61,282 bases of DNA from NCBI GenBank assembly GCA_043797265.1, contig JAZDPV010000016.1, forward strand, positions 1 to 61,282, written 5' to 3'. The position numbers were made by a program, and so were the translations under genes. The notes beneath the pieces were generated by a model that was given only the letters and a program-made list of their open reading frames with translations, had not been told where the DNA came from and did not search any database. Positions 2,343 to 47,712 of the stretch are shown here, piece by piece (the first letter of the stretch is position 1; every line of letters begins with the position of its first letter). Source of the stretch: an archaeon (lineage in GTDB: Archaea; Nanobdellota; Nanobdellia; Pacearchaeales; GW2011-AR1).

Positions 2343-2545
2343 AAAACAAAACATTATTATGGATTTTGTATGGATTAGTAAATTTACTTGGTTTTTATGC
2401 GGGTTATCAGTTTGCTATTGTAGTATATGAAATTATAAAAGGGGCAAGGGGGTTTTTTGTTGTAGGACAATTAACAGGTGTAGCTCTTATGATATGGTTA
2501 TTTATTTATTTAAGGAATTTAATTAAAAGAGAATTGAAAAAATGA
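2339..2545 (+). CDS. small membrane protein (2 TM)
   Basis: 68 aa, hydrophobic. ATGA-coupled to an unlisted 22-aa ORF (2542..2610, MKSNGEHYF...). Confidence 0.45.
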   Translation: MKNKTLLWILYGLVNLLGFYAGYQFAIVVYEIIKGARGFFVVGQLTGVALMIWLFIYLRNLIKRELKK

Positions 2546-2606
2546 AAAGTAATGGAGAACATTACTTCTATAAGAAGGATGGGGGGAATTCTTATAGGAA
2601 GAAAAA

Positions 2607-3242
2607 ATGAAAAACAAATGGGGTTATAAAACGGAAGGCAATCCCATCCACAGAATAAGGGCATATAATCATATTTATTTGATGAATAGAAAAAAATATC
2701 CTCTACAATGGGGAGCTTATGAAGTTCATCATATAGACGGCGATAGAGATAATAACCGAATGGATAATCTTGCGGTATTAACTCCAGAAGAACATGATAA
2801 AGCACATGACAAAATGGAATATGAACTTAGGATATTTTCTAAATATGGAACCTTACCAGAAGATTTGTTAAAACTTAAGGATATCTTTTCAAAAGAATAT
2901 AATTTGAGTTGGGAAAAAATAGAAGAGGAATTTCATGAATTGAGCAAAGAGTTTTTTTTAGAATTTTGTAAGGAGGATGAGAAATATAAATCTAATGAAA
3001 TAGTATATGGTGAACAAGTAGCTCTTAATACCCTTCAATACCAACTTAAATTAGAAGAAGGTAGAATCCCAATTGAAATCTTAAAAAAAACTTGGAAAGA
3101 ATTATTAGAAAATTACAAGGAAGAAAAAGAGGAAGCCAAAGAAGAAGCCGAAAGAAAAGTAAAACGAAAAGAATTAATGGATAAAATAAAAAAAGGTGTT
3201 AAGAAAGGATTTAAAACTATTTTTAAGAAGAGGAAAAAATGA
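2607..3242 (+). CDS. HNH endonuclease-domain protein with a charged coiled-coil tail
   Basis: HNH signature 'EVHHIDGDRDNNRMDNLAVLTPEEHDKAH'. The C-terminal half is E/K-rich. Confidence 0.7.
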   Translation: MKNKWGYKTEGNPIHRIRAYNHIYLMNRKKYPLQWGAYEVHHIDGDRDNNRMDNLAVLTPEEHDKAHDKMEYELRIFSKYGTLPEDLLKLKDIFSKEYNLSWEKIEEEFHELSKEFFLEFCKEDEKYKSNEIVYGEQVALNTLQYQLKLEEGRIPIEILKKTWKELLENYKEEKEEAKEEAERKVKRKELMDKIKKGVKKGFKTIFKKRKK

Positions 3243-3448
3243 AAAAATTAAAATCTTTGTGGGAGAAAGGGTGGTTCTTTATACCTGTATCTTTTGTATT
3301 ATGGTGGATTGTGATGATGATAGTTTTTGCGTATATTCTTCCCGTATTATTTGATTTTCAGGCAAAAGTTGAGAATGTTGTAAAACTAATGCTCTTGTTT
3401 TGGGGAGGCAGTATTCTAAACAGATATTGGTGGAATAAGAAAAAATGA
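3239..3448 (+). CDS. small membrane protein (2 TM)
   Basis: 69 aa, hydrophobic. ATGA-coupled on both sides. Confidence 0.45.
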   Translation: MKKLKSLWEKGWFFIPVSFVLWWIVMMIVFAYILPVLFDFQAKVENVVKLMLLFWGGSILNRYWWNKKK

Positions 3449-3810
3449 AAAGTAATGGAGAAAACGCAATAGCCGAAGTCTTAACGAAATATAATGTTGA
3501 TTTTGTATATGAATATCCATTATTAATAAAAGAAACTAAAGAAAATGATGGTGAAAAATTAAGAATTTGGTATCCTGATTTTTGGCTTCCTAAATATTCT
3601 ATAATTATCGAATACTTTGGCATGATGGATAATGAATCTTATCTTAAGGGAAAAGAGGCAAAAATGAAAGCATACAAAAAATTAGATATTGATTGTATCC
3701 CAGTTTATCCAAAAACAATTCAGGGCGATTTAAAATCTTATCTTTTGATTAGTATTAAAAAATTGATAAATGAAAAGGTAAGACATTTTGAAGGTAGAAA
3801 CAAAAAATGA
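3445..3810 (+). CDS. PD-(D/E)XK (Vsr/DUF559-like) nuclease-fold protein
   Basis: Motif 'YPDFWLP...IIIEYFG', typical of restriction-endonuclease-like folds. The N-terminal MKSNGE is shared with the mini-ORF at 2542. Confidence 0.45.
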   Translation: MKSNGENAIAEVLTKYNVDFVYEYPLLIKETKENDGEKLRIWYPDFWLPKYSIIIEYFGMMDNESYLKGKEAKMKAYKKLDIDCIPVYPKTIQGDLKSYLLISIKKLINEKVRHFEGRNKK

Positions 3811-4103: not shown

Positions 4104-4242
4104 CCCCTCATAGTTCAATGGTAGAACACGTGGCTGTAGAAGTGCGCTTGACGTTGTGCTGGGCACATAAGAATGATAGCGTTTTAGTCCGTATCGTGGC
4201 TGCAGAGCCCGCGATGTCCAAGTTCGATTCTTGGTGGGGGGA
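4104..4242 (+). tRNA. tRNA-Tyr (GUA) with a ~68-nt intron at the canonical 37/38 position
   Basis: Hand-folded cloverleaf:
- Acceptor stem CCCCTCA/TGGGGGG, giving C1-G72, with discriminator A73.
- D arm GTTC/GAAC.
- Anticodon stem CGTGG/CCGCG with loop CTGTAG|..|C.
- T arm CCAAG-TTCGATT-CTTGG.
The intron is ~4140..4207. Its 3' end (CTGCAG) pairs with the anticodon loop (CTGTAG) in a BHB-like way. Confidence 0.75.
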
Positions 4243-4304: not shown

Positions 4305-5266
4305 TGTGGGCACCCTTAATATGTTATGTATATTGAGAAGAGGAAATCTGGGAGAAGTGTAAAATATTATTTGGTTCATTCTTATCGAAACAAGGAGAAG
4401 ATAGAGAAAATAAGAAGGTATCTTGGGGTTAATCTTTCTGAGAAAGAATTATTAAGAAAAAGAGAAAAAGTTGAGAAAATAATTTTAGAGTTATTAGCGG
4501 AGATGAATACGCGGGTGTTTTTCTTTGTGTTAACAAAAAAACAAATAGAAATTTTGAATAAGTTTAGTAATAAAATTGAAGTGGTTCATTTGAGTGAAAA
4601 AGAATGGGAAAATTTTACAGAAGATTTTGTTTATAATACAAATGCTATTGAAGGTTCGACTGTGTCCGAGGAAGAAGTTGCAGAAATTCTTTGTAAGAAA
4701 AGTGCTGAAAATACCGAGGAGGTGGAAGCAAAAGGTGTTGCGATGGCGGTTGAATATATAAGAAGGACAAAGGAGGGTTTGTCGTTAAATTTATTGTTGA
4801 AATTACACAATTTTTGTTTCAAAGGTTCAAAACATTTTACGGGAAAATTCAGGGATGTTAATGTGGTTGTAAGAAATTCAAAGGGGCAAATTCTTCATGT
4901 GGGAGTTCCAAAAAAAGAGTTGAATGATTATCTTAAGGATTTTATTGAATGGTATAAAGAAAATAAAAATAAATTCAAACCCTTGGTTTTGGCTGCGATA
5001 TTACATAATCAATTTGAGCATATTCATCCGTTTCAGGACGGGAATGGGAGGGTGGGGAGATTGTTATTGAATTATATTTTATTGAAGAATAATTATCCTC
5101 CGATAAATATAGTGCTTGAAGATAGGCAGGAATATTATAAATCGTTGTATGAATATTCGAAAAGAGATGATTTGAAGCCAACTCTTAAATTGTTAATCAA
5201 GCAATATAAAAAGACACTAAAAGAGGTGTCTACAAAAAAGAATAAGAAGTGAGTTTGTGGGCACCC
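4305..5266 (+). mobile_element. Fic gene cassette bounded by 11-bp direct repeats
   Basis: TGTGGGCACCC occurs at 4305..4315 (11 nt before the ATG) and at 5256..5266 (3 nt after the stop). Confidence 0.45.
4326..5252 (+). CDS. fic: Fic/DOC family protein (AMPylase-type)
   Basis: Canonical Fic motif 'HPFQDGNGRVGRLL' (HxFx[DE]GNGRxxR). 308 aa. Confidence 0.85.
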   Translation: MYIEKRKSGRSVKYYLVHSYRNKEKIEKIRRYLGVNLSEKELLRKREKVEKIILELLAEMNTRVFFFVLTKKQIEILNKFSNKIEVVHLSEKEWENFTEDFVYNTNAIEGSTVSEEEVAEILCKKSAENTEEVEAKGVAMAVEYIRRTKEGLSLNLLLKLHNFCFKGSKHFTGKFRDVNVVVRNSKGQILHVGVPKKELNDYLKDFIEWYKENKNKFKPLVLAAILHNQFEHIHPFQDGNGRVGRLLLNYILLKNNYPPINIVLEDRQEYYKSLYEYSKRDDLKPTLKLLIKQYKKTLKEVSTKKNKK

Positions 5267-14151: not shown

Positions 14152-14261
14152 TGGGAAATTGGAGTAGGGAGGGAAAATTAGAGCGGGGAGGGAAAATTGG
14201 AGAGGGGAGGGAAAATTAGAGCGGGGAGGGGAAATTGGAGAGGGGAGGGGAAATTGGAGAG
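14152..14261 (+). repeat. 19-bp tandem repeat, ~5.8 copies (GGGAGGGAAAATTRGAGMG)
   Basis: Contiguous units at 14167, 14186, 14205, 14224 and 14243, plus a partial leading unit. Located between pgk and nagB. Confidence 0.9.
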
Positions 14262-14303
14262 CTTCGCTCTCGTATCTTGGCGGCTTCGCCGCCCCGCGCG
14301 GGG
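14257..14303 (+). other. two GC-TTC-GC hairpins plus a GC palindrome
   Basis: GAGAGC-TTC-GCTCTC (14257..14271), GGCGGC-TTC-GCCGCC (14279..14293) and CCCCGCGCGGGG (14292..14303). Confidence 0.8.
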
Positions 14304-16357: not shown

Positions 16358-16362
16358 AGGGG

Positions 16363-16402
16363 AATAATTGCTTACAAATTTCACAGATGGACACGGATTT
16401 TT
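16363..16402 (+). repeat. solo copy of the CACGGAT-type 3'-flank element
   Basis: AATAATTGCTTACAAATTTCACAGATGGACACGGATTTTT has about 35/40 identity to the element after the GxxExxY gene at 19546..19585. Confidence 0.7.
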
Positions 16403-18235: not shown

Positions 18236-19114
18236 ATGAGGTTTGATGTTGTGACTTTTGGCTCGGCGGTTGTGGACGCATTTGTGTCGACGGAGCAGAG
18301 GGGTAAGAAGTTTGAATACAAGCTTGGTTCTAAAATTTTGATTGATGACTTGAAGTTTGACGTCGGTGGCGGTGCGACGAATTCTGCGGTTGCGTTTGCG
18401 CGGCTTGGTTTGAAGACGGGTTGTATTTGTAAAGTTGGCGATGATAATAATGGCGAGGATGTTTTAGATTGTTTGAAAAAAGAGCGTGTGAAATTTTTGG
18501 GGAAAGTTGTCGGTGGTAAAACTGGTTATTCTGTGATTTTGGATAGTCGAGGCGGGGACAGAACGATATTGACTTTCAAGGGTCCGGGAAATGATGTGAG
18601 GTTTTTTGATATCGTGAAGTTTAGGACTAAGTGGTTGTATTTTTCGTCGGTGTTGGGCGAGAGTTTGCGGACGCAGATTAAATTGGCTGAGCGGATGAAA
18701 AGGTCCGGAGTGAAGTTGGCGTTTAATCCGAGTGAATATTTGATTCGGGCGGTTGATATTCGGAAGTTGTTGGTGATGAGTGATGTTGTTGTTTTGAATC
18801 GGGAAGAGTTTGATTTGGTCGGGAAGAAGTATGGGAAAAGTTTGCTGGAGATTTGTACGGGGGTTGTTGTTGTGACAGATAAGGATAAGATTATAACTTG
18901 TTATGTCGACGGGAAAAAGTATTTTTTGAAGCCGCATAAAATTAAAGTTGTCGAGAGGACCGGGGCGGGCGATGCGTTTGCGTCGGGGTTTGTTGCGGGG
19001 CAGATTGTCGGGATGTCGATTGAGAAATGTTTGGAGTTGGGGCTTGAGGAGAGTGAGGCCGTGATTGGGTTTTTTGGGGCGAAGAATAATCTTTTGAAGA
19101 GGAAGTTGAGATGA
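18236..19114 (+). CDS. PfkB-family sugar kinase
   Basis: 'DVGGGATNSAVAFARLG' and 'GAGDAFASGFVAG'. Start trimmed to the ATG. Confidence 0.8.
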   Translation: MRFDVVTFGSAVVDAFVSTEQRGKKFEYKLGSKILIDDLKFDVGGGATNSAVAFARLGLKTGCICKVGDDNNGEDVLDCLKKERVKFLGKVVGGKTGYSVILDSRGGDRTILTFKGPGNDVRFFDIVKFRTKWLYFSSVLGESLRTQIKLAERMKRSGVKLAFNPSEYLIRAVDIRKLLVMSDVVVLNREEFDLVGKKYGKSLLEICTGVVVVTDKDKIITCYVDGKKYFLKPHKIKVVERTGAGDAFASGFVAGQIVGMSIEKCLELGLEESEAVIGFFGAKNNLLKRKLR

Positions 19115-19124
19115 TTGAATTAAA

Positions 19125-19585
19125 ATTGCTCACGGATTGGCACGGATTAAAATTAAGATGAAACATGAATATATTACGGAGAAAATTATAAAAGTTTTTT
19201 ATGAAGTTTACAATGTTCTTGGGTATGGATTTTTGGAGAAGGTTTATGAAAATGCTTTGAAAATTGAGTTTGATAAAATTGGGTTGAGATATGTTAATCA
19301 GTATTCGATTAAAGTTTTTTATAAGGGAAAAATTGTAGGAGATTATGTTGCTGATTTTATTGTTGAGAATAAGGTTGTAGTTGAGGTGAAGGCGATTAAA
19401 AAATTTAGTAAGGTCGAAGAGTCACAGTTGTTGAATTATTTGACTGCTACAGATAAGGAAGTTGGGTTGTTGTTGAATTTTGGAGAAGAGGCGGAGTTTA
19501 AGAGGAAGGTTTATGATAATGAATTAAAGAAATATTTAGGTGAGGAATAATGGCTCACGGATTTCACGGATGGACACGGATTTTT
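19125..19585 (+). mobile_element. GxxExxY gene cassette bounded by CACGGAT-type repeats
   Basis: Left flank is ATTGCTCACGGATTGGCACGGATTAAAATT. Right flank is AATAATGGCTCACGGATTTCACGGATGGACACGGATTTTT. The interior is AT-rich. Confidence 0.5.
19158..19550 (+). CDS. GxxExxY family protein (PD-(D/E)XK-like)
   Basis: 'GYGFLEKVYENAL' (GxxExxY) and 'DFIVENKVVVEVKA'. Paralog of 22435..22836. Confidence 0.8.
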   Translation: MKHEYITEKIIKVFYEVYNVLGYGFLEKVYENALKIEFDKIGLRYVNQYSIKVFYKGKIVGDYVADFIVENKVVVEVKAIKKFSKVEESQLLNYLTATDKEVGLLLNFGEEAEFKRKVYDNELKKYLGEE

Positions 19586-19626
19586 GGTTTGGGGAAATTA
19601 ATAAATGTGTTTTGGGTTGGGTTGAG

Positions 19627-20112
19627 ATGAAAACAGAATTGAGATATAGTATAATTCATGAAGTTATTCTCAGCCATGGGAATGTCGATAGAGCGTTTGA
19701 TTTAAATGAATATAAAAAATTAGAAAAGAAGTCCGAGAAGTTCGTAAAATTATATAATCAGAATATAAAGAAAATTGTTGAATTATTAGAGAAAAAAGTT
19801 GGTTCAAGAAAGTGGCAATATGAATTTGTTCCAATTTATATTGTTGATATTAATTTGGAGAAATGTTATTTGTTTTCAGGAGAGAAAAAAATTAACTGGA
19901 AAGGATATGGTGATCCAATTACAATTCTTTTAAGGCAGGAGAAAGTGATGTTGTTTACTTTAATTCATGAGCTTGCTCATAATTTGATTGATTTAGAAAC
20001 ACAAGTGAAGATGGGTGAAGAAAAAGCAGAGAATTATATTCATTTAGATGTTTCTCAATATGTTTGGGATCAATTAAATATAGGGGACTGGAGAGAGTAT
20101 ATTAAAAAATGA
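19627..20112 (+). CDS. hypothetical protein with an HExxH motif (putative metallopeptidase)
   Basis: 'LIHELAHNL'. Trimmed to the ATG (MKTELRYS...). AT-rich. Confidence 0.4.
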   Translation: MKTELRYSIIHEVILSHGNVDRAFDLNEYKKLEKKSEKFVKLYNQNIKKIVELLEKKVGSRKWQYEFVPIYIVDINLEKCYLFSGEKKINWKGYGDPITILLRQEKVMLFTLIHELAHNLIDLETQVKMGEEKAENYIHLDVSQYVWDQLNIGDWREYIKK

Positions 20113-21386: not shown

Positions 21387-21722
21387 TTGGATGATGATGG
21401 GGGTTATGTTGTTGTTGATAGTGTTGATAGGAATATGGTTGATAACAGGCGTGAAGTGAGGAAGAGGATTTTAGATGTGGTGTATATTGTGGCTATGATA
21501 TTTGTAATTGTGTTTGGATTGTTTATTGCTTATCAGTTGATTAGAAGGTTGTTGGGTGGTTCGTGGGGAGTTGAAGATTTAGTGTTGGGGTTGTTGATGG
21601 CGCTTGTTGGTTTGTTTTTTATTATTGCTATTAGTCAGGTTAAGTTGGGAATGGAATTTAAATTTTTTCGAAGGCAGTTTGGTGGATTAGTAAATGATTT
21701 GAAAAGAAAAGGTGTAATATGA
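21387..21722 (+). CDS. membrane protein (2 TM)
   Basis: Two hydrophobic helices. Starts with TTG, so the start is uncertain (next in-frame ATG at 21435). Confidence 0.4.
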   Translation: MDDDGGYVVVDSVDRNMVDNRREVRKRILDVVYIVAMIFVIVFGLFIAYQLIRRLLGGSWGVEDLVLGLLMALVGLFFIIAISQVKLGMEFKFFRRQFGGLVNDLKRKGVI

Positions 21723-22345
21723 AGCCGATTGTTGTTGTGAATTTTAAGACGTATAAGCAGGGGGCTGGGGTTTTGAAGTTGGCGCGGGCAATTGAGAAAG
21801 TTGATGAGGAAATTATTGTCGGGGTGCAAGCGTGTGATGTTTTGGCGGTTTCGTCGAGGACGAATTTGAAAGTTTTTTGCCAGCATGTTGATTGGCAGAA
21901 GCCGGGGCGCGGGACCGGGTTTATTTTGCCCGAGGCGGTGAAAGCGGATGGGGCGGTTGGAGTTTTTTTGAATCATTCGGAGCATAAATTGAAATGGAGA
22001 ATTTTGAAGAGGACGGTTCGGAGATGTCGCGAGGTTGGGCTGGGTGTTTTGATTTTTGCGTCGGGGTTGAGAGAGGCCCGACGAGTCCGGAAGTTGAAGC
22101 CGGATTATTTGGTTGTTGAGCCGCCGGAGTTGGTTGGTGGAAAGGTTTCAGTTTCTTCCCGTCCTGAATTTATTTTGGATTTGTCGAGGAATCTGAAATG
22201 TGATTTTTTGGTTGGAGCCGGGATTTGTTCGAGGAGGGATGTTGTTCGGGCTTTGGAGTTGGGGGCGGTTGGCGTCGCTGTTTCTTCTGGTATCGTGAGG
22301 GCTCGCGAGCCGGGGCGAGTTTTGCGGAGGATGCTCACGAAATAA
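21719..22345 (+). CDS. tpiA: triosephosphate isomerase (short archaeal type)
   Basis: 'VVVNFKTY', 'GVFLNHSEH', 'PDYLVVEPPELVG' and 'LVGAGI'. 208 aa. Confidence 0.9.
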   Translation: MKPIVVVNFKTYKQGAGVLKLARAIEKVDEEIIVGVQACDVLAVSSRTNLKVFCQHVDWQKPGRGTGFILPEAVKADGAVGVFLNHSEHKLKWRILKRTVRRCREVGLGVLIFASGLREARRVRKLKPDYLVVEPPELVGGKVSVSSRPEFILDLSRNLKCDFLVGAGICSRRDVVRALELGAVGVAVSSGIVRAREPGRVLRRMLTK

Positions 22346-22875
22346 TTGCTCACGAATAACACGGATTGACACGAATTTTTTATTGGGGTAAATTATATGG
22401 AAGGTTTTTTATATAAGGAGTATTTGTTGGGCTGATGGAGTTTGAGGGGATTAGCGGGAAAGTTATTGAGATTTTTTATCGGGTTTATAATGGATTGGGT
22501 TATGGATTTTTGGAGAGTGTTTATGAGAGGGCGATGATGCACGAGTTTGTGAAGGAGGGGATTGAATTTGTTAATCAGTTTCCGATTAAGGTTTATTATG
22601 ACGGGGTTGTCGTCGGGAGTTTTGTTGCGGATTTTGTCGTTGAAGGGAATTTGGTGGTTGAGTTGAAAGCGGTGCGTGAGGTGTCTCAGGCAGATGAGAA
22701 TCAGTTGTTGAATTATTTGAGTTCGACAGACAAGGAAATAGGATTATTGTTGAACTTTGGTGAGAAACCGGAGATTAAACGAAAGGTTTATGATAATGTT
22801 CGGAAGAAAAATTATCGTGGTGGGCTCACGAAATAATTGCTCACGAATAAACACGGATTGACACGAATTTTTTTT
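22333..22875 (+). mobile_element. GxxExxY gene cassette flanked by ~50-bp direct repeats that include the tpiA stop region
   Basis: GCTCACGAAATAATTGCTCACGAATAACACGGATTGACACGAATTTTTT at 22333..22381 is repeated at 22824..22875 with one extra A. Both tpiA and the cassette ORF therefore end in LTK-stop. Confidence 0.7.
22435..22836 (+). CDS. GxxExxY family protein (PD-(D/E)XK-like)
   Basis: 'GYGFLESVYERAM' and 'DFVVEGNLVVELKA'. It has its own TATA (TTTTATATAA, about 20 nt upstream). Confidence 0.8.
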   Translation: MEFEGISGKVIEIFYRVYNGLGYGFLESVYERAMMHEFVKEGIEFVNQFPIKVYYDGVVVGSFVADFVVEGNLVVELKAVREVSQADENQLLNYLSSTDKEIGLLLNFGEKPEIKRKVYDNVRKKNYRGGLTK

Positions 22876-22993
22876 GGGTTGGGATAGATGAAGTATAAAG
22901 AGAATTAAAATCGAAAAATTTATAAATTTGGAATTACTACTTAGTTTAAGTTAATTAAATTTTACAAGGCCGATAAGGTATTGATTTTGTAAA

Positions 22994-23341
22994 ATGGGTG
23001 AGTCGGGGGAAACAGAAGAGAATAAAACAGAAGAGAAAGTGAGTGTGTCTTTAAAAGGGGATACTATCTTGCTTCTTGATGAAGTAGCGAGAAAGAAAGT
23101 TGCTTTGGCTATGAAAAATGGTTCTTTTGATATAATTAATTTAATAAGAAGCAAGAGGGGCAGGGGAATTTCTTATGATCGTGAAGTAAATTATTTAGCA
23201 AGAATTTATCTTGCAGTAATGGATGAAACCGCTTTAAGTAGAGACATGATAGATAAGAATCCACAATTAAAAAAAGTTCTTGATAGATTAAATGAAATTA
23301 ATAATTTTTTTATTAAGTCTGAGCACAGGGATGAAGAATAA
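22994..23341 (+). CDS. hypothetical protein, possibly with an N-terminal ribbon-helix-helix
   Basis: 'VSVSLKGDTILLLDEVARKK' resembles the RHH beta-strand plus helix. Confidence 0.4.
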   Translation: MGESGETEENKTEEKVSVSLKGDTILLLDEVARKKVALAMKNGSFDIINLIRSKRGRGISYDREVNYLARIYLAVMDETALSRDMIDKNPQLKKVLDRLNEINNFFIKSEHRDEE

Positions 23342-23349
23342 TTCTATAT

Positions 23350-23385
23350 ACTAACATTACTAACATTACTAACATTACTAATATT
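23350..23385 (+). repeat. 9-mer tandem repeat (ACTAACATT x4)
   Basis: ACTAACATT x3 followed by ACTAATATT, directly after the stop at 23341. Confidence 0.85.
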
Positions 23386-23445
23386 TTGAGGTTTATTTAT
23401 TAAGTTCGTCATCTTGATTGCTTTACAATATTGCTTTACGATAAG

Positions 23446-23661
23446 ATGAAGAAAAAAAGAGAAGATGCTAATTATAATCAAGAAAAAATTATAAAAGAAT
23501 TAAAAGAAAATCCGGAGGGATTTACTGTTTCTGAATTGTCCAAAAAAATTAGTGTTTCAAGGCAAACGGTATCCAATCATTTTGCATTTTTGGAAGGCGC
23601 AAAAAAAGTTAAAACGAGGCAGACAGGTATGGCTAAAATTTATTTTTGGGGTGGAAAATGA
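23446..23661 (+). CDS. winged-helix DNA-binding protein
   Basis: 'FTVSELSKKISVSRQTVSNHFAFLEGAKKV'. Stop is ATGA-overlapped with the next gene. Confidence 0.6.
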   Translation: MKKKREDANYNQEKIIKELKENPEGFTVSELSKKISVSRQTVSNHFAFLEGAKKVKTRQTGMAKIYFWGGK

Positions 23662-25067
23662 GCAAGAACTTTTTTATTTTAATGGGCGTGTTTATTTTGG
23701 CATTAACTATAAATATTGTTTCAGCGTCGGATGTTTTGGTTTGGCAGGGGCAGTATTATACTGGGACGACTTTTAATGTGGGGACTTATGAATTTAATTT
23801 TAGTGTTTATGATGCTTTGACGGGAGGGAGTGTTTGTTATTCTAATACGACGAGTTTGACGACGGGAAATTTTGGAGAGTGGAGAACTGAGCAGAGCGGT
23901 GTGAGTTCTGCTTGTAGTAATGTTTCGAAGGATTATTATTTGAATATAAATATCGATGGGGTGGACCAAACTCCGAGGAGAAGGGTGGCGGTTTGGAATT
24001 TTTTAAGGAAGGATGTTGATGAAGTTTCAACAGGAAATTTAGTGTTGCATGGTGTATTGCAGGGTTTAAGCCCGCTGAAGTTACAGGATGAAATTAATTT
24101 TCTTAAATCTGATGGAATTGTTACATCAGCATTATATAATGCTCCAAGAGAACTTTCATCCACACTTCCATCTGTTTTTGCAGATTCATTAATCCATGAT
24201 ATTATACAAGAAACAAATGATTATGGGATGCAGGAATGCTTTTGGGATGAAAATACAGAGACAATGCAAATGTGTATTAGTGGGTCGTATTTACCATACA
24301 GAGCAACTACTGTTTCAAGAAGTTTTCAGGTAGTGGGGAACACAACAAACAAGCCAGTAAATGAAAATTTTACTTTATGTGAAGGAAATAATTATGTTGA
24401 TTGCGACAGCGATGCGACGGGGGCGGATTTGTTGGTTGAGGATGATATTGAGGCGATTGGAAGTATATTCTCGCAGGAAAATATAACTGCGAATTATTTT
24501 ATCGGGGATGGGAGTTTGTTGACGGGAATTTCAGGAGGGGGAAATCCATTTAACCAAGTTTGTAATACAACTTCAAATGTTACTTTCAATACAATTACTG
24601 GAACAGGGTTAATTACCGGCGTAGGATTAATAGCCAAAAGTACTAGTGGAACAAAGAATTTTACTATAAACTATACTGGAACTGAATGGGATTTATCTCA
24701 ATCGGGAACATCAGGGGAAATTCATTTTATGACTAATGCCCATAATCCCCAAATATCTGCGGGAAGATCTGATTCGGGAGGTTCTTTCTTTATAGATATG
24801 CATAATGGAAGACCAATAAAACTTAGTACTATTAGCAAAGGAGAGGTTCAAGTGGGTGCTAATCTTACCGTTGGAGAAAATATTAACGTAACAGGAAGTA
24901 TAACTACTGGAGGAAAAATTCAAGGAGATTATTATGCTAATGATAGTTCGGAGGGAATAACTAATCTGGGAGGTTATAGTATTTGTCTTTCAGTTAATGG
25001 TGGAGGTGGATGTGATACTTGGTGCACATTACAAATTAAGAATGGTTTAATTACGGGATGTAGTTGA
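23658..25067 (+). CDS. secreted protein, fibre/adhesin-like
   Basis: Signal peptide FFILMGVFILALTINIVSA. Many N-x-S/T sites. 'YFIGDGSLLTGISGG' is reminiscent of tail-fibre repeats (weak). Confidence 0.5.
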   Translation: MSKNFFILMGVFILALTINIVSASDVLVWQGQYYTGTTFNVGTYEFNFSVYDALTGGSVCYSNTTSLTTGNFGEWRTEQSGVSSACSNVSKDYYLNINIDGVDQTPRRRVAVWNFLRKDVDEVSTGNLVLHGVLQGLSPLKLQDEINFLKSDGIVTSALYNAPRELSSTLPSVFADSLIHDIIQETNDYGMQECFWDENTETMQMCISGSYLPYRATTVSRSFQVVGNTTNKPVNENFTLCEGNNYVDCDSDATGADLLVEDDIEAIGSIFSQENITANYFIGDGSLLTGISGGGNPFNQVCNTTSNVTFNTITGTGLITGVGLIAKSTSGTKNFTINYTGTEWDLSQSGTSGEIHFMTNAHNPQISAGRSDSGGSFFIDMHNGRPIKLSTISKGEVQVGANLTVGENINVTGSITTGGKIQGDYYANDSSEGITNLGGYSICLSVNGGGGCDTWCTLQIKNGLITGCS

Positions 25068-25069
25068 AA

Positions 25070-25528
25070 ATGAAATTTATAATCCTTATAATTCTTTTAT
25101 TTTTATTTATTCCTTTAGTTTTCGCAGAAACAACCTTCTTTGATAATCCCGACGATGCTTTTGTTATGGGAAATTCTCCAGCAACAGGAGGAGTTATAAT
25201 AACTGAGGAACAACAGGCAGGTGGTGGTGGTTGTTTATATAAATGGAATTGCACGGATTGGAGCGAATGTTTTTCATCGGGAGAGCAAACAAGAGATTGT
25301 GTTAATGTTGGGAGTTGTCCTGATACATATAAAGTTCCGGAGACAAGACAAAATTGTACTTATGTGGTTTCGGGGATTGGAGAAGATTTGGAGAAAGAAG
25401 GCGAGGAGGAAGGGATAGTAAATGAGAATAGGATATTTATTTATGTTGTTGTAGTTTTGATAATTCTTTTTGTTGTGTTTTATTTGGAGAAGGATTATTT
25501 TAAAAAGTTAATTAAGAAGAGTTTTTGA
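25070..25528 (+). CDS. secreted Cys-containing protein with a C-terminal TM anchor
   Basis: Signal peptide, 'CLYKWNCTDWSECFSSGEQTRDCVNVGSCPD', and TM helix IFIYVVVVLIILFVVF. Confidence 0.5.
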   Translation: MKFIILIILLFLFIPLVFAETTFFDNPDDAFVMGNSPATGGVIITEEQQAGGGGCLYKWNCTDWSECFSSGEQTRDCVNVGSCPDTYKVPETRQNCTYVVSGIGEDLEKEGEEEGIVNENRIFIYVVVVLIILFVVFYLEKDYFKKLIKKSF

Positions 25529-25557
25529 AGATTGAATGTTTTTGGGAGTTAATTATT

Positions 25558-26307
25558 TTATAATGAGCAGATCCAGCCGCCGTCGACGACTATTTCGCTT
25601 CCGGTCATGTATGAAGAGGCGTCGGATGCAAGGAAAACTGCGGGGCCTGCGATGTCGACGGGCTTGCCTACTCTTTTAATTAAGAATTTGGATATCATTC
25701 CTTCGAGTGCTTTTTTGTCTTTTGTGAATGCGGTCGTCATTGGGGTGTCTATTAATCCTGGGTGAATTGAGTTGACTCTTATTCCCGAGGGGCCGACTTC
25801 TGCTGCGAGGGCTTTTGTAAATAATCTGATTCCACCTTTGCTTGCGCAGTATGCGGCTCCACCGGCGGAACCTTTTATTCCGGCTACGGAAGAAATGTTG
25901 ATTATCGAGGCACCTTTTTTCATATATTTTAATGCTGCCTGAGAACACAGGAATGGGCCTTTTAGATTTATATTCATTGTCTTGTCCCAATTTTCTTCTG
26001 GCAAATCTGAAGTATTTCCCGGGATGTAGATTCCTGCGTTGTTTACCAAGATGTCTATTTTTTTGAAAGTTTTTATTGTTTTGTTAATTAATTTTTCTAC
26101 TTCTGTTTTTTTGGAGATGTCTGTTTTTACATAGATTGCTTTTTGTTTTAGTTTTTTGATTTCGTTGATTGTTTCGTTTCCCGGGATGATGTCAGAGACG
26201 ACGATGTCCGCTCCGTTTCTTGCCAGCTCGACGGCGATGGATTGTCCGATGCCTCTTGCGGCGCCGGTTACAATTGCGACTTTATTTTTTAGACTGAACA
26301 TGTTCAC
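25558..26307 (-). CDS. SDR-family oxidoreductase (FabG/glucose dehydrogenase-like)
   Basis: 'VTGAARGIGQ', 'NNAG' and 'YCASKGG'. Confidence 0.85.
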   Translation of the reverse strand: MNMFSLKNKVAIVTGAARGIGQSIAVELARNGADIVVSDIIPGNETINEIKKLKQKAIYVKTDISKKTEVEKLINKTIKTFKKIDILVNNAGIYIPGNTSDLPEENWDKTMNINLKGPFLCSQAALKYMKKGASIINISSVAGIKGSAGGAAYCASKGGIRLFTKALAAEVGPSGIRVNSIHPGLIDTPMTTAFTKDKKALEGMISKFLIKRVGKPVDIAGPAVFLASDASSYMTGSEIVVDGGWICSL

Positions 26308-27688: not shown

Positions 27689-27784
27689 AATCGCTTCGCG
27701 ATTGGGGATATTTTTGCTTTGCAAAAATGGGGGTACAAAAAATCGAAGATTTTTTGTGGTGATATGAAAATCTTTGATTTTCAT
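27689..27784 (+). other. four consecutive perfect hairpins with 3-nt loops
   Basis: AATCGC-TTC-GCGATT; TTTTTGC-TTT-GCAAAAA; CAAAAAATC-GAA-GATTTTTTG; ATGAAAATC-TTT-GATTTTCAT. Confidence 0.85.
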
Positions 27785-27797
27785 GGGCGTTGGAGGA

Positions 27798-28166
27798 ATG
27801 ATGTGGAATTATAAAAATTTGGAAGTTTGGAAGAGGGCACATGAGTTGATGAAGAATGTGTATAAAGTTATTGATGCGTTTCCTGAGAAGGAGAGGTATA
27901 ATGCGGTTTTCCAGATTAGGAAAGCGGTTTTTAGTGTTCCGAGCAATATTGTTGAGGGTTCGGGAAAGGATACTAATAAAGATTTTGCTCATTATTTGGA
28001 TAATGCGATTGGGAGTTTGAAGGAAGTTGAGTATCAGATTTTTGCGTCATGGGAGTTGGGTTATGTTGGCGAAGAGAAATATAAAGAGTTAAAAAAGGAG
28101 ATGACTATATTTGGGATGAAATTGAGGGCTTATCGGAGGTTTATTGGAGGAGGTGAGAAAAAATGA
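27798..28166 (+). CDS. four-helix-bundle protein (TIGR02436 family, formerly '23S rRNA intervening sequence protein')
   Basis: 'YKNLEVWKRAHELMKNVYKV', 'RKAVFSVPSNIVEGSG' and 'AIGSLKEVEYQI'. GGAGGA lies before the ATG. Stop is ATGA-overlapped with the next gene. Confidence 0.8.
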   Translation: MMWNYKNLEVWKRAHELMKNVYKVIDAFPEKERYNAVFQIRKAVFSVPSNIVEGSGKDTNKDFAHYLDNAIGSLKEVEYQIFASWELGYVGEEKYKELKKEMTIFGMKLRAYRRFIGGGEKK

Positions 28167-35853: not shown

Positions 35854-35889
35854 TTTGGTTGATGTAACTTTATTGCAACTATAAAGAAC

Positions 35890-35932
35890 ATGGATGAGGC
35901 ATGGATTACACGGATAACGTGGATTTAAAAAA
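35890..35932 (+). repeat. degenerate CACGGAT-type 3'-flank element
   Basis: CATGGATGAGGCATGGATTACACGGATAACGTGGATTTAAAAAA. Confidence 0.5.
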
Positions 35933-35975: not shown

Positions 35976-36449
35976 ATGGTGAAGAAACTGAAGGTTGGGT
36001 TTTTTTCGTTTACGTGTTGTGAGGGGTGCGTGGTTTCGTTTTTGGAAATTTTGAATGAGAAGTTTTTTGAATGGCGGGACAAGGTTGATATTTTGTATTT
36101 GCGGGCGCTGAAAAAGGACGGGGAGATTGCGCCGATGGATGTTGCGTTTGTCGAGGGTGCGGTGTCGACGGAGAGCGAGGTCCGGAAGTTGAAGTTGATT
36201 CGAAAGAACGCGGGGAAGTTGGTCGCGATTGGGAGTGGGGCGATTAATGGATGGCCGTCGAATTTTAGGAATAATTTTAAGGGCGAGAAAAAAAAGAGGG
36301 TGGATGTTTTAGTGAAGAAGATGGGGCAGATTAAGAAAGTTTTGCCGTTGAAGGATGTCGTGAAAGTTGATGATGAGGTGCCGGGTTGCCCGATTGACGA
36401 AAAGATTTTTATCGAGAAGATGGAGAGGTTGATGGGGGGTAGGGGGTAG
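35976..36449 (+). CDS. [NiFe]-hydrogenase small subunit, short group-3 (delta-like) form
   Basis: 'FFSFTCCEGC' and 'VPGCPID'. Only 157 aa, with only proximal-cluster-type Cys residues visible. Confidence 0.75.
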   Translation: MVKKLKVGFFSFTCCEGCVVSFLEILNEKFFEWRDKVDILYLRALKKDGEIAPMDVAFVEGAVSTESEVRKLKLIRKNAGKLVAIGSGAINGWPSNFRNNFKGEKKKRVDVLVKKMGQIKKVLPLKDVVKVDDEVPGCPIDEKIFIEKMERLMGGRG

Positions 36450-36488
36450 GGGGTAGGGGGTAGATGGTAGGGGGTAGGAGGTAGGGAG
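36440..36488 (+). repeat. TAG-heptamer array x7 (TAGGGGG-type) containing the small-subunit stop codon
   Basis: TAGs at 36440, 36447 (the stop codon), 36454, 36461, 36468, 36475 and 36482. Confidence 0.9.
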
Positions 36489-36498
36489 AGGAAAAAAT

Positions 36499-37266
36499 TG
36501 GAGGAGAAAATGCATAAGTTTGATTTGGATTTGAAGAATAGTAAAATATTTAAATCTATGAATATTAATTGTATTAGCGCTTTTCGGAGCGTGAGTATAT
36601 CCCCCGGTGATCTTTTGGGGTTGCCGGATGATTTTATTTTTTTTGGAGTGTGTTTTTAATGGAAGATGTTGTGGTTTTTGTTGATGATGGTTTTTTTGGA
36701 TTGGTAAAAAAACATTTTCAAAAAGAAACTAAGAAGAGGGGTTGTTTTCTTCAGACTTTTAGAAATATTTGTAAAAATGAAAATTTAAATTTGAAACATT
36801 TATTTTTTTATACTGCGCCTCCTTATCAAAATAAAATTTCTGATAATAAAGAAGATTTTTTAAAAAAGAAATATGATCTTTTGGTAAAGATGTTGAAAAA
36901 TAAGAAGTGGATTACGGTTCGAGAGGGAAGATGCCAGCGATTGAAAATAGGTGATGAATTTAAATATTTTCAAAAGGGTGTTGATTCTTGGATAGTTGCT
37001 GATATGTGTTTAATGAAAGAAGATTTCCCGGAAGTTAAGAAAATAATTTTGATTTCTTCTGATTCAGATTTTGCTCCGATAATTAAATATCTTAAGGAAA
37101 GAAATAAGTTTGAGGTGATATTGTATACTTATTTTGATAAGAAGAGAAATAGTTGTTTTTCTCTAAGTAATTATCTTTTGCAAGCTTGTTCTAAGTGGGT
37201 TAGAATGACCAGCTCTTTTTTTAATGGAGGAGAAAATGCATAAGTTTGATTTGGATTTGAAGAATA
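36499..37266 (+). mobile_element. NYN-gene cassette with perfect 42-bp flanking direct repeats
   Basis: TGGAGGAGAAAATGCATAAGTTTGATTTGGATTTGAAGAATA occurs at 36499..36540 and 37225..37266. The repeat holds the RBS and first 10 codons of the hydrogenase large subunit. Confidence 0.8.
36659..37243 (+). CDS. NYN-domain (LabA/DUF88-like) predicted RNase
   Basis: 'VVVFVDDGFF', 'KGVDSWIVADM' and 'ILISSDSDFAPII'. The ATG is TAATG-overlapped with a 49-aa leader ORF (36510..36659) that begins at the stranded hydrogenase start. Confidence 0.75.
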   Translation: MEDVVVFVDDGFFGLVKKHFQKETKKRGCFLQTFRNICKNENLNLKHLFFYTAPPYQNKISDNKEDFLKKKYDLLVKMLKNKKWITVREGRCQRLKIGDEFKYFQKGVDSWIVADMCLMKEDFPEVKKIILISSDSDFAPIIKYLKERNKFEVILYTYFDKKRNSCFSLSNYLLQACSKWVRMTSSFFNGGENA

Positions 37267-38560: not shown

Positions 38561-38599
38561 AATGGCACACGGACTAACGCGGAATTAACACGGATTTTG
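38561..38599 (+). repeat. CACGGAT-type 3'-flank element
   Basis: AATGGCACACGGACTAACGCGGAATTAACACGGATTTTG. Overlaps the 3' end of the convergent protease gene. Confidence 0.55.
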
Positions 38600-40519: not shown

Positions 40520-40628
40520 GCCCGTGTCGCATAGTGGTATTGCATACCCCTTCGGGGCACGAGAACCTGCTCATAAATTCGCAGGCAAGACTGGAAATCT
40601 TGGTCCTTCGGGACGCCCAGGTTCAATT
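40520..40628 (+). pseudogene. truncated tRNA-Ser(GGA) copy with a 41-nt insertion after the D arm
   Basis: Matches the intact gene from position 1 to the T loop. It lacks the T-stem 3' strand and acceptor 3' strand. The insert is TACCCCTTCGGGGCACGAGAACCTGCTCATAAATTCGCAGG. A further 14-nt 5' fragment lies at 40468..40481. Confidence 0.6.
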
Positions 40629-40681: not shown

Positions 40682-40762
40682 GCCCGTATCGCATAGTGGT
40701 ATTGCACAAGACTGGAAATCTTGGTCCTTCGGGACACCCAGGTTCAATTCCTGGTGCGGGCG
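40682..40762 (+). tRNA. tRNA-Ser (GGA), class II with a long variable arm
   Basis: Folds as GCCCGTA-TC-GCAT..TTGC-A-CAAGA-CTGGAAA-TCTTG-[GTCCTTCGGGACAC]-CCAGG-TTCAATT-CCTGG-TGCGGGC-G. Confidence 0.85.
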
Positions 40763-40774
40763 TATGGAGGTAAG

Positions 40775-40939
40775 ATGGATAGGGAAAATATAGAGTTGGC
40801 CAAGGAGCATATTGAGTTGGCTGGGGAATTAATTGAGAAAGAGGCGGTTGATGTCGAGGGGGAGAAGCGTGAGATTTTGAGGAAGAGTGTTTTTGACTTG
40901 GAGAAGGCCGGGGCTGAGCTTGAAGAGGGTGCGGATTAA
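40775..40939 (+). CDS. small acidic helical protein (54 aa)
   Basis: Trimmed from ORF 40721, whose 5' part overlaps the tRNA-Ser gene. Confidence 0.4.
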   Translation: MDRENIELAKEHIELAGELIEKEAVDVEGEKREILRKSVFDLEKAGAELEEGAD

Positions 40940-41048
40940 TTTAAGTTTGAATTTAGGACGCGGATGTCGGGGCTGTAGAGATTAACTTTGTCGCCTTCGT
41001 CAAGATAGAATTCTATGAATTTTTGTGGTTGTTTTTTTTCAGGATTTT
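40936..41048 (-). pseudogene. displaced, frameshifted 3'-end remnant of the XPD-like helicase gene
   Basis: 41 nt (40955..40995) are identical to 41706..41746. 40996..41048 is about 90% identical to 41796..41848. Relative to the intact gene it has a 51-nt gap and a 1-nt deletion. Confidence 0.75.
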
Positions 41049-41848
41049 GATGCTGAGAAATTTGTTAGGTCTTTGATAAATTCTGTATTTATTATTTGTG
41101 TGGATGAGGCTACTTTTTTTAGATGGTATGAAATTGATTTTTTGTTTCCAATTGCTACGTATATTATTTTTTTGTTGAGCCTGTTGATTATTGATGAGAT
41201 AACGCTTGAGAAGTCGCCGTCGTTTGATATCAGGAAAGCTTTGTCGTAATTATTGTTTATGGCGTCGAAGATTAAATCTTGTGCTATGTTTATATCTGTT
41301 GCTTTTTCTATGTAGAATGTTTTGTTGTCTTTTTTGTGTTTTTCTAATCTGCCGAATATTATTTTTAGTTTTTCTATTTTTCTTATTTTTTCGAAGAAGC
41401 GTTGTTGTTCTGCATACATTTTTGGGTTTGATTCTCCCACTGGAGAGATGTAATAATTAATTTTGACTAACTTGTATTTTTTTGCGAGTTTTTTGCAGAA
41501 TTTTTCTATGTCGATTTTTTGGTTAAAAGTTTTCTTAATGGAAAAATAAAAATTATTTCCGTCGATATATATTATCACTTTTTTCTTATCAGAATTCATA
41601 TTATAAAAAACATGGGGTTAGTTTCCTATCCCCATGGTGTTAATTAATGTTGATAATTATTTAGAGTTATTAAATCTTTCTGTTGTTGCTATTTGATTTG
41701 CGTTGAGGACGCGGATGTCGGGGCTGTAGAGATTAACTTTGTCGCCCTTGAATCGGATGCCTCTTGCGATTTTTTGATAGAGGTCTCGTCGGGCTTTGTC
41801 GAGATAGAATTCCATGAATTTTTGTGGTTGTTCTTTTTTTAGGATTTT
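40955..41848 (-). mobile_element. NYN-gene cassette flanked by duplicated helicase 3'-end sequence
   Basis: The intact helicase C-terminus (41657..41848) and the remnant (40936..41048) bracket a hairpin plus the NYN gene. Confidence 0.7.
41039..41599 (-). CDS. NYN-domain (LabA/DUF88-like) predicted RNase
   Basis: 'VIIYIDGNNFY', 'KATDINIAQDL' and 'FLISNDGDFSSVI'. Its last codons run into the duplicated helicase sequence. Confidence 0.75.
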   Translation of the reverse strand: MNSDKKKVIIYIDGNNFYFSIKKTFNQKIDIEKFCKKLAKKYKLVKINYYISPVGESNPKMYAEQQRFFEKIRKIEKLKIIFGRLEKHKKDNKTFYIEKATDINIAQDLIFDAINNNYDKAFLISNDGDFSSVISSIINRLNKKIIYVAIGNKKSISYHLKKVASSTQIINTEFIKDLTNFSASKS

Positions 41849-46626: not shown

Positions 46627-46865
46627 CTGAAGATTCTAATAATTTTGAAGAGAAATGGAAGCAGTTAGTTGTTGAAAGAGTTAATGCTGGGATGTCAGCT
46701 AATTTAAAACTTTCAATAGGAATGGGGAAAAGTTTTAACAAGGAGGAAGTTTTGGAGCACGTTAGAAAAGGTGATGAGATTGGACAGCAAGTAATTAATA
46801 TGCATAAAAATTTTATGCAGGCTCAGGTATCTGGACAATTTACTAATGCTCTTAATAGTGTTTAA
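46623..46865 (+). CDS. small hypothetical protein (80 aa)
   Basis: ATGA-coupled upstream and TAATG-coupled downstream. Confidence 0.45.
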   Translation: MTEDSNNFEEKWKQLVVERVNAGMSANLKLSIGMGKSFNKEEVLEHVRKGDEIGQQVINMHKNFMQAQVSGQFTNALNSV

Positions 46866-47544: not shown

Positions 47545-47555
47545 GTTGGGGAAGT

Positions 47556-47596
47556 AACACAGACGAGGCATAGAGAACACGAATTACACGAATTTT
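47556..47596 (+). repeat. degenerate CACGAAT-type 3'-flank element
   Basis: AACACAGACGAGGCATAGAGAACACGAATTACACGAATTTTA. Confidence 0.5.
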
Positions 47597-47712
47597 ATAT
47601 TTGTTGCTGGATTATTTCATCGGGGTTGAGTAGTAAGACAAGTTTAAATAAAACAGAGGAGTTATTGGTTTATGATTTTTAGAGATGATATGAAAGGGGG
47701 TTTGAAAAAGAG

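Follow-up and report, generated by a model that had tools for sequence, protein, structure and literature searches.

Within 61,282 nt of DNA from an archaeon of the Pacearchaeales (contig JAZDPV010000016.1 of assembly GCA_043797265.1; this whole stretch is hereafter the window), the triose-phosphate isomerase gene tpiA is followed by a cassette that encodes one small protein of the GxxExxY family, GxxExxY-2, and lies between near-identical direct repeats of about 50 bp. The repeats belong to a family of sequences that we call arms, an arm being a TAA-bearing leader followed by three CACGRAT units phased at ~10 nt and a T-run. In the explanation that we favour, at a probability of about 0.6, the cassette was inserted by long target duplication directly downstream of a resident arm that ends tpiA and acted as the landing pad.

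The cassette at tpiA and its empty site

The tpiA gene (21719–22345, + strand) encodes an archaeal triose-phosphate isomerase of 208 aa (NF003302, 186 bits; PF00121) and is equal in length to its counterparts in relatives L150, L151 and L253. Its last three codons and stop codon sit in the first copy of the repeat, arm D, a 49-nt sequence (GCTCACGAAATAATTGCTCACGAATAACACGGATTGACACGAATTTTTT) at 22333–22381 (+). Arm D comprises the LTK codons and TAA of tpiA, the leader AAATAATTG, the units CTCACGAAT, CACGGAT and CACGAAT at a spacing of 9–10 nt, and a T6 run; the TAA that tpiA uses is held by the leader. The second copy, arm E (22824–22875, +), was recovered by gapped alignment and by the direct-repeat scan, has one extra A and is identical to arm D at 49 of 50 bases. 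Without gaps, the pair resolves into identical runs of 27 and 24 bases, spaced 491 and 492 apart; no second ungapped match consistent with the indel of this repeat was found, and none arose in 100 shuffles. Direct repeats of at least 22 nt lying within 4 kb of each other number 17 in the window as a whole, compared with 0–1 in Markov controls.

Arm E supplies the last three codons and stop codon of GxxExxY-2 (22435–22836, +), an open reading frame (ORF) of 133 aa encoding a predicted PD-(D/E)XK nuclease (TIGR04256, 126 bits; PF13366, E = 3e-37). The tpiA product ends in ..RRMLTK* and that of the cassette gene in ..RGGLTK*, with both stops inside the repeat. A preliminary description of this DNA had reported both the ~50-bp direct repeat with its single extra A and the shared LTK-stop ending, and sequence and gapped alignment bear them out. 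It had also credited the cassette with a TATA box of its own: a box resembling a B recognition element (BRE) and TATA element, AAGGTTTTTTATATAAGG, does lie in the cassette at 22402–22419 (+), 16–33 nt upstream of the GxxExxY-2 ATG, and judged by its sequence it is a putative promoter. Similar boxes (GGTTTTTATAT / GGGTTTTTAAG) precede five other GxxExxY copies of what we call the DPANN type (L217, L205, L114, L145 and L142), defined by a strong + strand GC skew like that of the window. The 442 bp separating the two repeats hold the PDDEXK_3 ORF only, with no transposase, integrase or other gene. Short spurious ORFs and altered C-termini result from arms and duplicated gene ends of this kind, and should be recognised by annotation pipelines.

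An empty version of the site is present in a syntenic relative, Rel-1, represented by contigs L249 and L253 from one sample and L255 from another, and found through an 87% identical match to the four-helix-bundle protein of the window. Its gene order is PfkB, a four-helix-bundle gene, fba, two small ORFs, tpiA and a convergent SDR gene, and synteny continues from SDR through a mannose-6-phosphate isomerase-like gene, ROK and a four-helix-bundle gene to a GHMP kinase. The TpiA protein of Rel-1 is 77.5% identical to that of the window and identical in length; a look-up of the exact window TpiA in the contig index gave no record. Its gene ends ..ATGTTCACGAAATAATTGCTCACGAATTTACGCGAATGGACACGAATTTTTT, that is, ATG TTC ACG AAA TAA TTG CTCACGAAT TTA CGCGAAT GGA CACGAATTTTTT, with one homologous arm at exactly the same position providing the tpiA stop codon (L253 and L255). 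The SDR 3′ end follows ~60 nt past this arm and aligns to window positions 25543–25593, and a profile search found no GxxExxY gene in the Rel-1 contigs.

The sequences of the three arms date the duplication. The tpiA arm is ~86% identical between the window and Rel-1, and the bases directly after it are unalignable. Arms D and E are one indel apart, each differs from the Rel-1 arm at 6–7 positions, and arm E has the window-specific CTC codon where Rel-1 has TTC; taken together, these observations place the duplication after the split of the two lineages. The CTC in arm E also traces the LTK-stop of GxxExxY-2 to the copied tpiA end, and on this reading of the sequences arm D would be the resident copy and arm E the duplicate. 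More distant syntenic relatives (L149 at 68%, L150 at 60% and L151 at 58%) have neither arm nor cassette, and L149 has PfkB, fba and tpiA in stop-to-start overlap. The preliminary description had proposed a search for tpiA loci without the cassette; two kinds of such locus are found here, and the single-arm, cassette-free site of Rel-1 supports its claim that the cassette is an insertion and the repeat a duplicated target.

Two further differences between these genomes were observed nearby. An island of 2.7 kb (22900–25540; GC 33–36%) with four ORFs and a threefold repeat of TACTAACAT (23349–23384) lies between arm E and SDR, and is absent from Rel-1. The PfkB/fba junction appears as a hot spot: it is empty in L149 (1750–1765, a stop/start overlap), holds a four-helix-bundle gene in Rel-1 (L253, 930–1480), and in the window (19100–20112) holds a second GxxExxY gene, GxxExxY-1, and an HExxH ORF.

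The two GxxExxY proteins of the window score 125.7 and 129.2 bits against TIGR04256 (cut-off 35) and 128 and 131.6 bits against PF13366 (cut-off 22). Residues G24, E27, Y30, D66 and K78 are invariant in two alignments of 24 and 20 sequences, and E76 is invariant in one of them and nearly so in the other. The AlphaFold2 (AF2) model of GxxExxY-2 (pLDDT 89.3, pTM 0.82) has LHK-Exo, Cas4 SSO0001, Hjc and lambda exonuclease as Foldseek neighbours, with probabilities of 0.99–1.0 and TM-scores of just 0.4–0.5; a PDB sequence search with the family profile returned no match. On the strength of the model and the conserved residues, GxxExxY-2 is predicted to be an active PD-(D/E)XK nuclease. PADLOC models gave no match for GxxExxY-2 and just a weak Cas4 match for GxxExxY-1 (E = 5e-4); by contrast, two other proteins of the window, NYN2 and Fic, match HEC-09 and SoFic/PDC-S04, respectively. 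The family is very large, with more than 8,000 candidates scored in one search, and has almost no literature: the accessible literature on GxxExxY, PF13366 or TIGR04256 consists of passing mentions and one table entry (‘function unknown, multiple transfers’), and text searches with the arm sequences led, by titles and abstracts, to unrelated papers only. The genomic behaviour of the family is now concrete, as a cassette beside a defined repeat.

Arms in the window and in other genomes

The window contains eight arms, all on the + strand and each no more than 40 nt after the end of a + strand ORF, and no reverse-orientation array was found anywhere in it. As RNA, arms fold no better than shuffled sequences (z from −0.7 to +0.9), and they have no attC-like internal inverted repeat. 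At gathering thresholds Rfam recognises only four tRNAs in the window, and no rRNA.

Arms B and C flank the second GxxExxY gene. This cassette 1 (19119–19586) consists of arm B (19119–19148, +), which has two units and starts 5 nt past the PfkB stop; GxxExxY-1 (19158–19550, +), a paralogue 58% identical to GxxExxY-2 (TIGR04256, 129 bits; PF13366, E = 2e-38), for which we used the ATG at 19158 where a mechanical ORF list has a TTG at 19137; and arm C (19541–19586, +), with three units and a T-run, whose leader GAATAATGG contains the GxxExxY-1 stop codon. The preliminary description had placed a paralogous cassette at 19125–19585 between the PfkB kinase gene and fba, and the gene and its related arms are indeed there, although an unannotated HExxH ORF (~19628–20112) separates the cassette from fba. 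Arms B and C match over 24 nt only, with 22 identical bases and one gap.

The remaining arms stand alone. Arm A (16361–16402, +) follows a GDE_C-like gene and is 83% identical over 54 nt to the end of GxxExxY-1 together with arm C, a resemblance by which it may be the remnant of a cassette 3′ end rather than a plain solo repeat. Arm F (35880–35925, +) is degenerate, with four units followed by TTT and an A-run instead of a T-run; it lies before hydD, with no GxxExxY gene near it. Arm G (38563–38597, +), a degenerate array after hydA, has an intact counterpart in L260 and decayed ones in L257 and L258; L259 and L261 lack it. Arm H (47552–47597, +), also degenerate, follows the ORF at 46865–47512. 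A census of repeat copies, solo or paired, had been suggested at the outset, and within the window it comes to A, F, G and H solo, with B/C and D/E around GxxExxY genes. One earlier idea is not supported: the cassettes had been thought to target gene ends as such and to duplicate sequence belonging to tpiA itself, whereas most of the repeat is a pre-existing arm of a type that stands solo after unrelated genes. What GxxExxY cassettes seem to favour is the arm, which itself lies at a gene end, and not the gene end alone.

Some simpler accounts of the repeats were examined and set aside. An assembly artefact would not give repeats of differing lengths (24, 42, 50 and ~110 bp), one of them with an indel, enclosing intact genes, nor the same architecture again in independent assemblies (L145–L148, L177 and L217). 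A plain target-site duplication of tpiA-specific sequence is at odds with the presence of the same arm type around cassette 1 and, solo, elsewhere.

Other DPANN-type loci come in two layouts. In one, a GxxExxY gene has a downstream forward arm and no upstream arm (L163, L178, L205 and L114); in the other, which includes the window, the gene lies between two forward arms (L145, L177, L217 and L142) that are near-identical over 24–75 nt, beginning at or just past stop codons. The downstream forward arm is always present, and arms of the same cassette are more alike than arms elsewhere (L145, L177, L217 and L142). Several arm leaders (GGRAATAATKG) provide the stop codon of the preceding ORF. The closest relatives of several window proteins are in metagenome-assembled genomes (MAGs) labelled Woesearchaeota, Pacearchaeota or Nanoarchaeota, and it is on these relatives and the archaeal-type triose-phosphate isomerase that we base the assignment of the source to a DPANN-type archaeon. 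The + strand GC skew itself is ~+0.5 over most of the window and 0.06–0.3 at its first kilobase and at minus-strand genes.

Beyond this group, a strict arm pattern (CTCACGRAT-N1-3-CACGGAT-N2-3-CACGRATTTT) searched in one-genome-per-species GTDB contigs occurs at 61 loci, for which our own back-of-envelope calculation gives a chance expectation of ~0.006; the loci include Chloroflexota, Spirochaetota, Cloacimonadota and two archaea. Many of the 61 are gene-less hairpins of forward array, loop and reverse array that are multicopy within a MAG. We also collected GxxExxY loci from genomes and metagenomes, where a scan with a single GxxExxY protein as query found no relatives and an alignment query did retrieve them. 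At the 137 loci with at least 150 nt on both sides, loose arrays, defined as three or more C[AG][CT]N[GA]AT units, occur at ~0.6 per kb (our calculation from counts) within ~250 nt of GxxExxY genes and at 0.03 per kb more than 600 nt away. Unit arrays thus show an enrichment of about 20-fold next to GxxExxY genes, across many phyla of archaea and bacteria, and the figure is conservative because a regular expression for at least three units undercounts degenerate arms.

In bacteria, the GxxExxY gene usually follows a forward array and is itself followed by a reverse-complement one; an inverted flank score of at least 30 was reached at 37 of 71 loci and, in the best of ten shuffles, at 3 of 71. 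The unit varies by group (CGCAGAT, CACGGAT, CACTGAT, CGCAAAT or CTCGGAT). In one GxxExxY subfamily all arms are of a closely related GGAC(G/A)CAGAT type, with exact GGACGCAGAT in most, and the MAG labels run from Desulfobacteraceae/Thermodesulfobacteriota through Scalindua and Brocadia to Balneolales and Ratteibacteria; one subfamily having related arms under so many phylum labels indicates that gene and arms travel together across phyla. At 94 loci, comparison of the forward arm with the reverse complement of its partner showed conserved unit cores and non-complementary 2–3-nt spacers. The mismatches comprise 766 transversions and 414 transitions, and the GU-compatible ones (223 versus 191, p = 0.13) have no strand bias. 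Judged from these sequences, the pattern is a better match for sites of sequence-specific binding arrayed at helical phasing than for an RNA stem under selection. Rfam gave no match on 20 bacterial GxxExxY loci.

Arm arrays are also common in viral contigs, although scans of these found no GxxExxY relatives. There, 49 of 93 viral or proviral arrays follow the end of a same-strand ORF, compared with 19.5% of random positions. Among IMG/VR loci (L304–L383), triple CACGGAT arrays were seen frequently, typically as TTTAAC-CACGGAT-GAA-CACGGAT.. with TAA in the leader and no GxxExxY gene nearby. The result is a repeat family common to bacteria and archaea, absent from Rfam, that gives host genes their stop codons.

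Other genes with duplicated flanks

The preliminary description had grouped the GxxExxY cassettes with NYN, Fic and four-helix-bundle genes as a class of single-gene elements that duplicate gene ends. Two NYN genes and an HNH gene fit this class, and the other two do not: Fic has just the 11-mer TGTGGGCACCC on its flanks, and repeat scans of the window found no long flanking repeat for the four-helix-bundle gene.

The NYN1 cassette (36499–37266, +; ORF 36659–37243) lies between hydD and hydA, which overlap directly in relatives L259 and L261. Its flanks are a perfect 42-bp repeat (36499–36540 and 37225–37266) that comprises the ribosome-binding site, ATG and first 10 codons of hydA, and the cassette extends from a TATA box through a structured leader of ~85 nt and the NYN ORF to the position of the stop codon. 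The TATA box and leader are conserved before NYN genes in four genomes (window 36541–36658; L243, L245 and L247), and the leader contains a UUCG-capped stem whose sequence varies while its pairing is kept in all four (fold z = −2.4). No Rfam family matches it, a permissive scan giving just a chance-level match. Homologues of NYN1 that are 60–66% identical occur in unrelated contexts in other DPANN genomes, again flanked by copies of the start of the downstream gene, of 42 nt (L243 and L244) or 108 nt (L245). In L245, both copies of the RFC gene start are in frame and differ by ~20%, mostly conservatively.

The NYN2 unit (40938–41848, −; gene 41039–41599) has repeat copies of ~110 nt, of which one (40938–41048) is a relic with a 48-nt deletion and the other (41690–41848) lies inside the 3′ end of the gene at 41657–43630. 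The HNH endonuclease gene (2607–3242) forms a unit at 2536–3462 (+) with a perfect 24-bp repeat (2536–2559 and 3439–3462) spanning the start of the ORF at 3445–3810.

Several further observations concern these regions. In L257 (2495–2850), whose hydA is 87% identical, three tandem copies of the first ~57 nt of the gene are separated by ~75-nt spacers, one interval being masked as N; by these tandem starts, the beginning of hydA seems a recurrent site of duplication. In the window (36430–36490), about eight copies of the G-rich heptamer GGTAGGG stand in place of the normal hydD C-terminus (..EKMEGFLNA* in relatives). The Fic gene (4326–5252) directly follows a 139-nt tRNA (4104–4242) recognised by Rfam and missed by ARAGORN, probably with an intron. 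Upstream of the four-helix-bundle (PF05635) genes, in the window (27690–27790) and in L253 (960–1075), there are four tandem modules of GGGG(A/G)TA and a short hairpin; the hairpins differ between the two genomes and stay palindromic, and may form a structured leader or a binding array. At 40586–40628, a 43-nt partial copy of tRNA-Ser is 98% identical to 40707–40749 and lies 121 nt upstream of it in the intact gene (40682–40762); it resembles what integration into the tRNA would leave behind. A 19-nt tandem repeat, GGGAAATTGGAGAGGGGAG, occupies 14153–14266, with five overlapping 38-nt copies listed at 19-nt spacing.

Origin of the cassette and known systems

We picture the history of the tpiA locus as follows. 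The ancestor shared by the window and Rel-1 would have gained an arm at the tpiA stop codon. In the window lineage, a cassette of ~440 bp, made up of its own BRE/TATA-like promoter and the GxxExxY PD-(D/E)XK nuclease ORF, would then have entered the site just past the arm with 49 bp duplicated. The duplicated target would have taken in the arm as well as the stop and final three codons of tpiA, leaving tpiA intact and letting the nuclease ORF run into LTK-stop and an arm. The arm supplies tpiA with its stop codon and could plausibly, this being an archaeon, act as its terminator too; both genes would thereby keep a stop codon and a T-run terminator, which may be why such insertions survive in a compact genome. 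Arrays occur beside GxxExxY genes across domains and most arrays are gene-less, so the arm is most likely a landing pad, and it could act either as the recognition sequence of the nuclease or as homology for integration. The duplication itself could result from widely staggered breaks that are filled in, or from single-crossover integration of a circle.

Several points weigh against this history. At the strain level no empty allele came to light; the nearest empty site belongs to another species-level lineage. Besides the cassette, a further low-GC island of 2.7 kb (22.9–25.5 kb) sets the window apart from Rel-1. Had Rel-1 lost the cassette by recombination between its repeats, the same single arm would remain, and the identity of D and E could equally stem from gene conversion; such a loss, followed by re-homogenisation, is the main rival. 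The arms of cassette 1 are dissimilar, and the DPANN-type loci with a downstream arm only (L163, L178, L205 and L114) suggest that the cassette carries its own arm. A GxxExxY gene is present at just 4 of the 61 strict-pattern GTDB loci and at none of 80 viral or proviral loci with arrays; most arms being far from GxxExxY genes, they must have a life of their own. Binding or cutting of arms by the nuclease is conjectural.

Some of these points would be expected if the arm belongs to the element, with a circle of promoter, ORF and arm integrating and excising by homologous or site-specific recombination between arms, in a Campbell-type or integron-like manner. The single arm of Rel-1 would then be an excision footprint and not a virgin target. 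This account agrees with the forward arm that directly follows the stop in all DPANN-type GxxExxY genes examined, including those with no arm upstream, and with the resemblance of arm A to a leftover cassette 3′ end, the solo arms after hydA in various states of decay among related lineages, and the ~20% divergence of the RFC gene-start copies in L245, expected if one of them came with the cassette; the 50-bp direct repeat is moreover a ready substrate for excision. Integration between differing arms should, however, leave hybrid arms, and D and E are one indel apart while other window arms differ at many positions. Arm E also has the last three tpiA codons with the window-specific CTC, unexpected in a travelling arm unless it came from this very site. 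With no integrase among the ~30 window ORFs scanned against Pfam and NCBIfam, and no attC-like symmetry in the arms, we consider a travelling arm rather unlikely, and prefer insertion beside a resident one.

Alternatively, arms could be terminator or regulatory repeats typical of the lineage, with the cassette and second arm produced untargeted by illegitimate recombination or local tandem duplication. Most arms end in a T-run, all lie close behind + strand ORF ends, hydrogenase genes included, and viral arrays likewise favour same-strand ORF ends; most have no GxxExxY gene nearby; and conservation of the tpiA arm at ~86% between the window and Rel-1, next to unalignable bases, suggests a host function. 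In archaea a T-run suffices for termination, and in bacteria a GC-rich hairpin serves. Neither explains three phased, sequence-specific units conserved across domains, and untargeted events would account poorly for the ~20-fold enrichment, for one subfamily keeping GGAC(G/A)CAGAT-type arms under several phylum labels, and for long duplications around as many as four nuclease genes within 61 kb, which is more than incidental. The preliminary description had held that its interpretation would fail if no empty site existed anywhere and the repeat occurred only as a generic terminator unrelated to GxxExxY genes; most arrays do lack the gene, but arrays are enriched beside it, and we regard this account as improbable. 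Least probable is action at the RNA level, in which arms would pair into a stem cut from a longer transcript, as in the intervening sequences (IVSs) of 23S rRNA, whose ORF-bearing forms are documented as bounded by inverted repeats and cut by RNase III (PMC4990558). Most bacterial loci do have a GxxExxY gene between forward and reverse-complement arms. The window arms, all in the same orientation and folding no better than shuffles, rule out a hairpin there, and in the 94 bacterial loci the non-complementary spacers, the transversion excess and the lack of GU strand bias weaken it, as does the lack of any Rfam match.

Known mobile systems resemble the cassettes in part. The 23S rRNA IVSs that encode S23p (PF05635) are likewise small single ORFs bracketed by repeats, horizontally scattered, that spare the host gene; they lie inside rRNA between inverted repeats forming an RNase III stem, whereas the repeats here are direct and non-folding, follow protein genes, and occur in a window with no rRNA. 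PF05635 genes are themselves present, at 27774–28166 in the window and at the PfkB/fba junction of Rel-1, but those examined have the upstream hairpin modules instead of CACGRAT arms. Integron cassettes are single-gene units ending in a conserved recombination-type repeat, can be stacked and also have solo sites. Their attC is an imperfect palindrome recombined by IntI, unlike the arm with its lack of internal symmetry; the cassette described here includes a promoter-like box, its flanking repeats are near-identical over 50 bp rather than sharing 7-bp cores, and no IntI integrase with attI was found among the ~30 window ORFs scanned.

Insertion sequences (IS) with their miniature inverted-repeat transposable elements (MITEs), and REP-associated tyrosine transposases (RAYTs) with their repetitive extragenic palindromes (REPs), share a different feature: there are many more arm arrays than GxxExxY genes, hairpins with no gene occur in multiple copies within individual bacterial MAGs, and arms look, from their sequence, like phased protein-binding sites. 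GxxExxY differs in being a PD-(D/E)XK protein and not a DDE or HUH transposase, short target-site duplications have not been demonstrated, and the archaeal arms are direct, with the gene outside the outer end of the arm; terminal inverted repeats are lacking in the window and present in many bacterial relatives. One might tentatively go further, to a possible if doubtful proposition that GxxExxY nucleases and arm arrays form an undescribed cross-domain mobile system. The arms would then be gene-end modules that spread by themselves and bring along a stop codon, together with a terminator in archaea; the small PD-(D/E)XK protein, by recognising them, would bring about the insertion of its gene beside an arm, with a long duplication; and NYN and HNH genes would use the same route in DPANN genomes. 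Such a system would be comparable to RAYT/REP or IS/MITE pairs, built on a restriction-endonuclease fold.

Free-standing homing endonuclease genes are also small nuclease genes beside a presumed target, tolerated since the host gene is left intact, and the HNH gene gives the window a member of a kind used in homing. Homing, in contrast, copies the gene by break repair with no target duplication. We know of no established cleavage specificity for GxxExxY or NYN proteins.

The closest documented process appears to be one described for bacterial restriction-modification units under the name of insertion with long target duplication (Nobusato et al. 2000, as given by Furuta, Abe & Kobayashi 2010, Nucleic Acids Res 38:2428; PMC2853133). 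Its defining features there are repeats that vary in length and exceed 30 bp, a lack of mobility genes, and a single copy of the repeat in the allele that is empty; in one example a 46-bp repeat overlaps the 3′ end of a gene, and no archaeal cases were retained in that survey (PMC2853133). The tpiA cassette is likewise a nuclease gene with neither transposase nor integrase, its direct repeats exceed 30 bp (49/50 bp), the repeat is single-copy in a related genome lacking the insert (L253 and L255, of a different lineage with TpiA at 77.5%), and the site is, as often there, the end of a host gene. It differs in its cargo, which is a single nuclease-fold gene in place of restriction and methyltransferase genes: in each case here a solitary small nuclease gene (GxxExxY, NYN or HNH) has no methyltransferase in its cassette. 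The host, moreover, is a DPANN-type archaeon, and for GxxExxY the duplicated target itself belongs to a conserved family of repeats. The comparison would extend long target duplication, so far described for bacterial restriction-modification genes, to solitary nuclease genes of small DPANN genomes, where sets of occupied, empty and solo-repeat alleles offer clean material for working out the mechanism.

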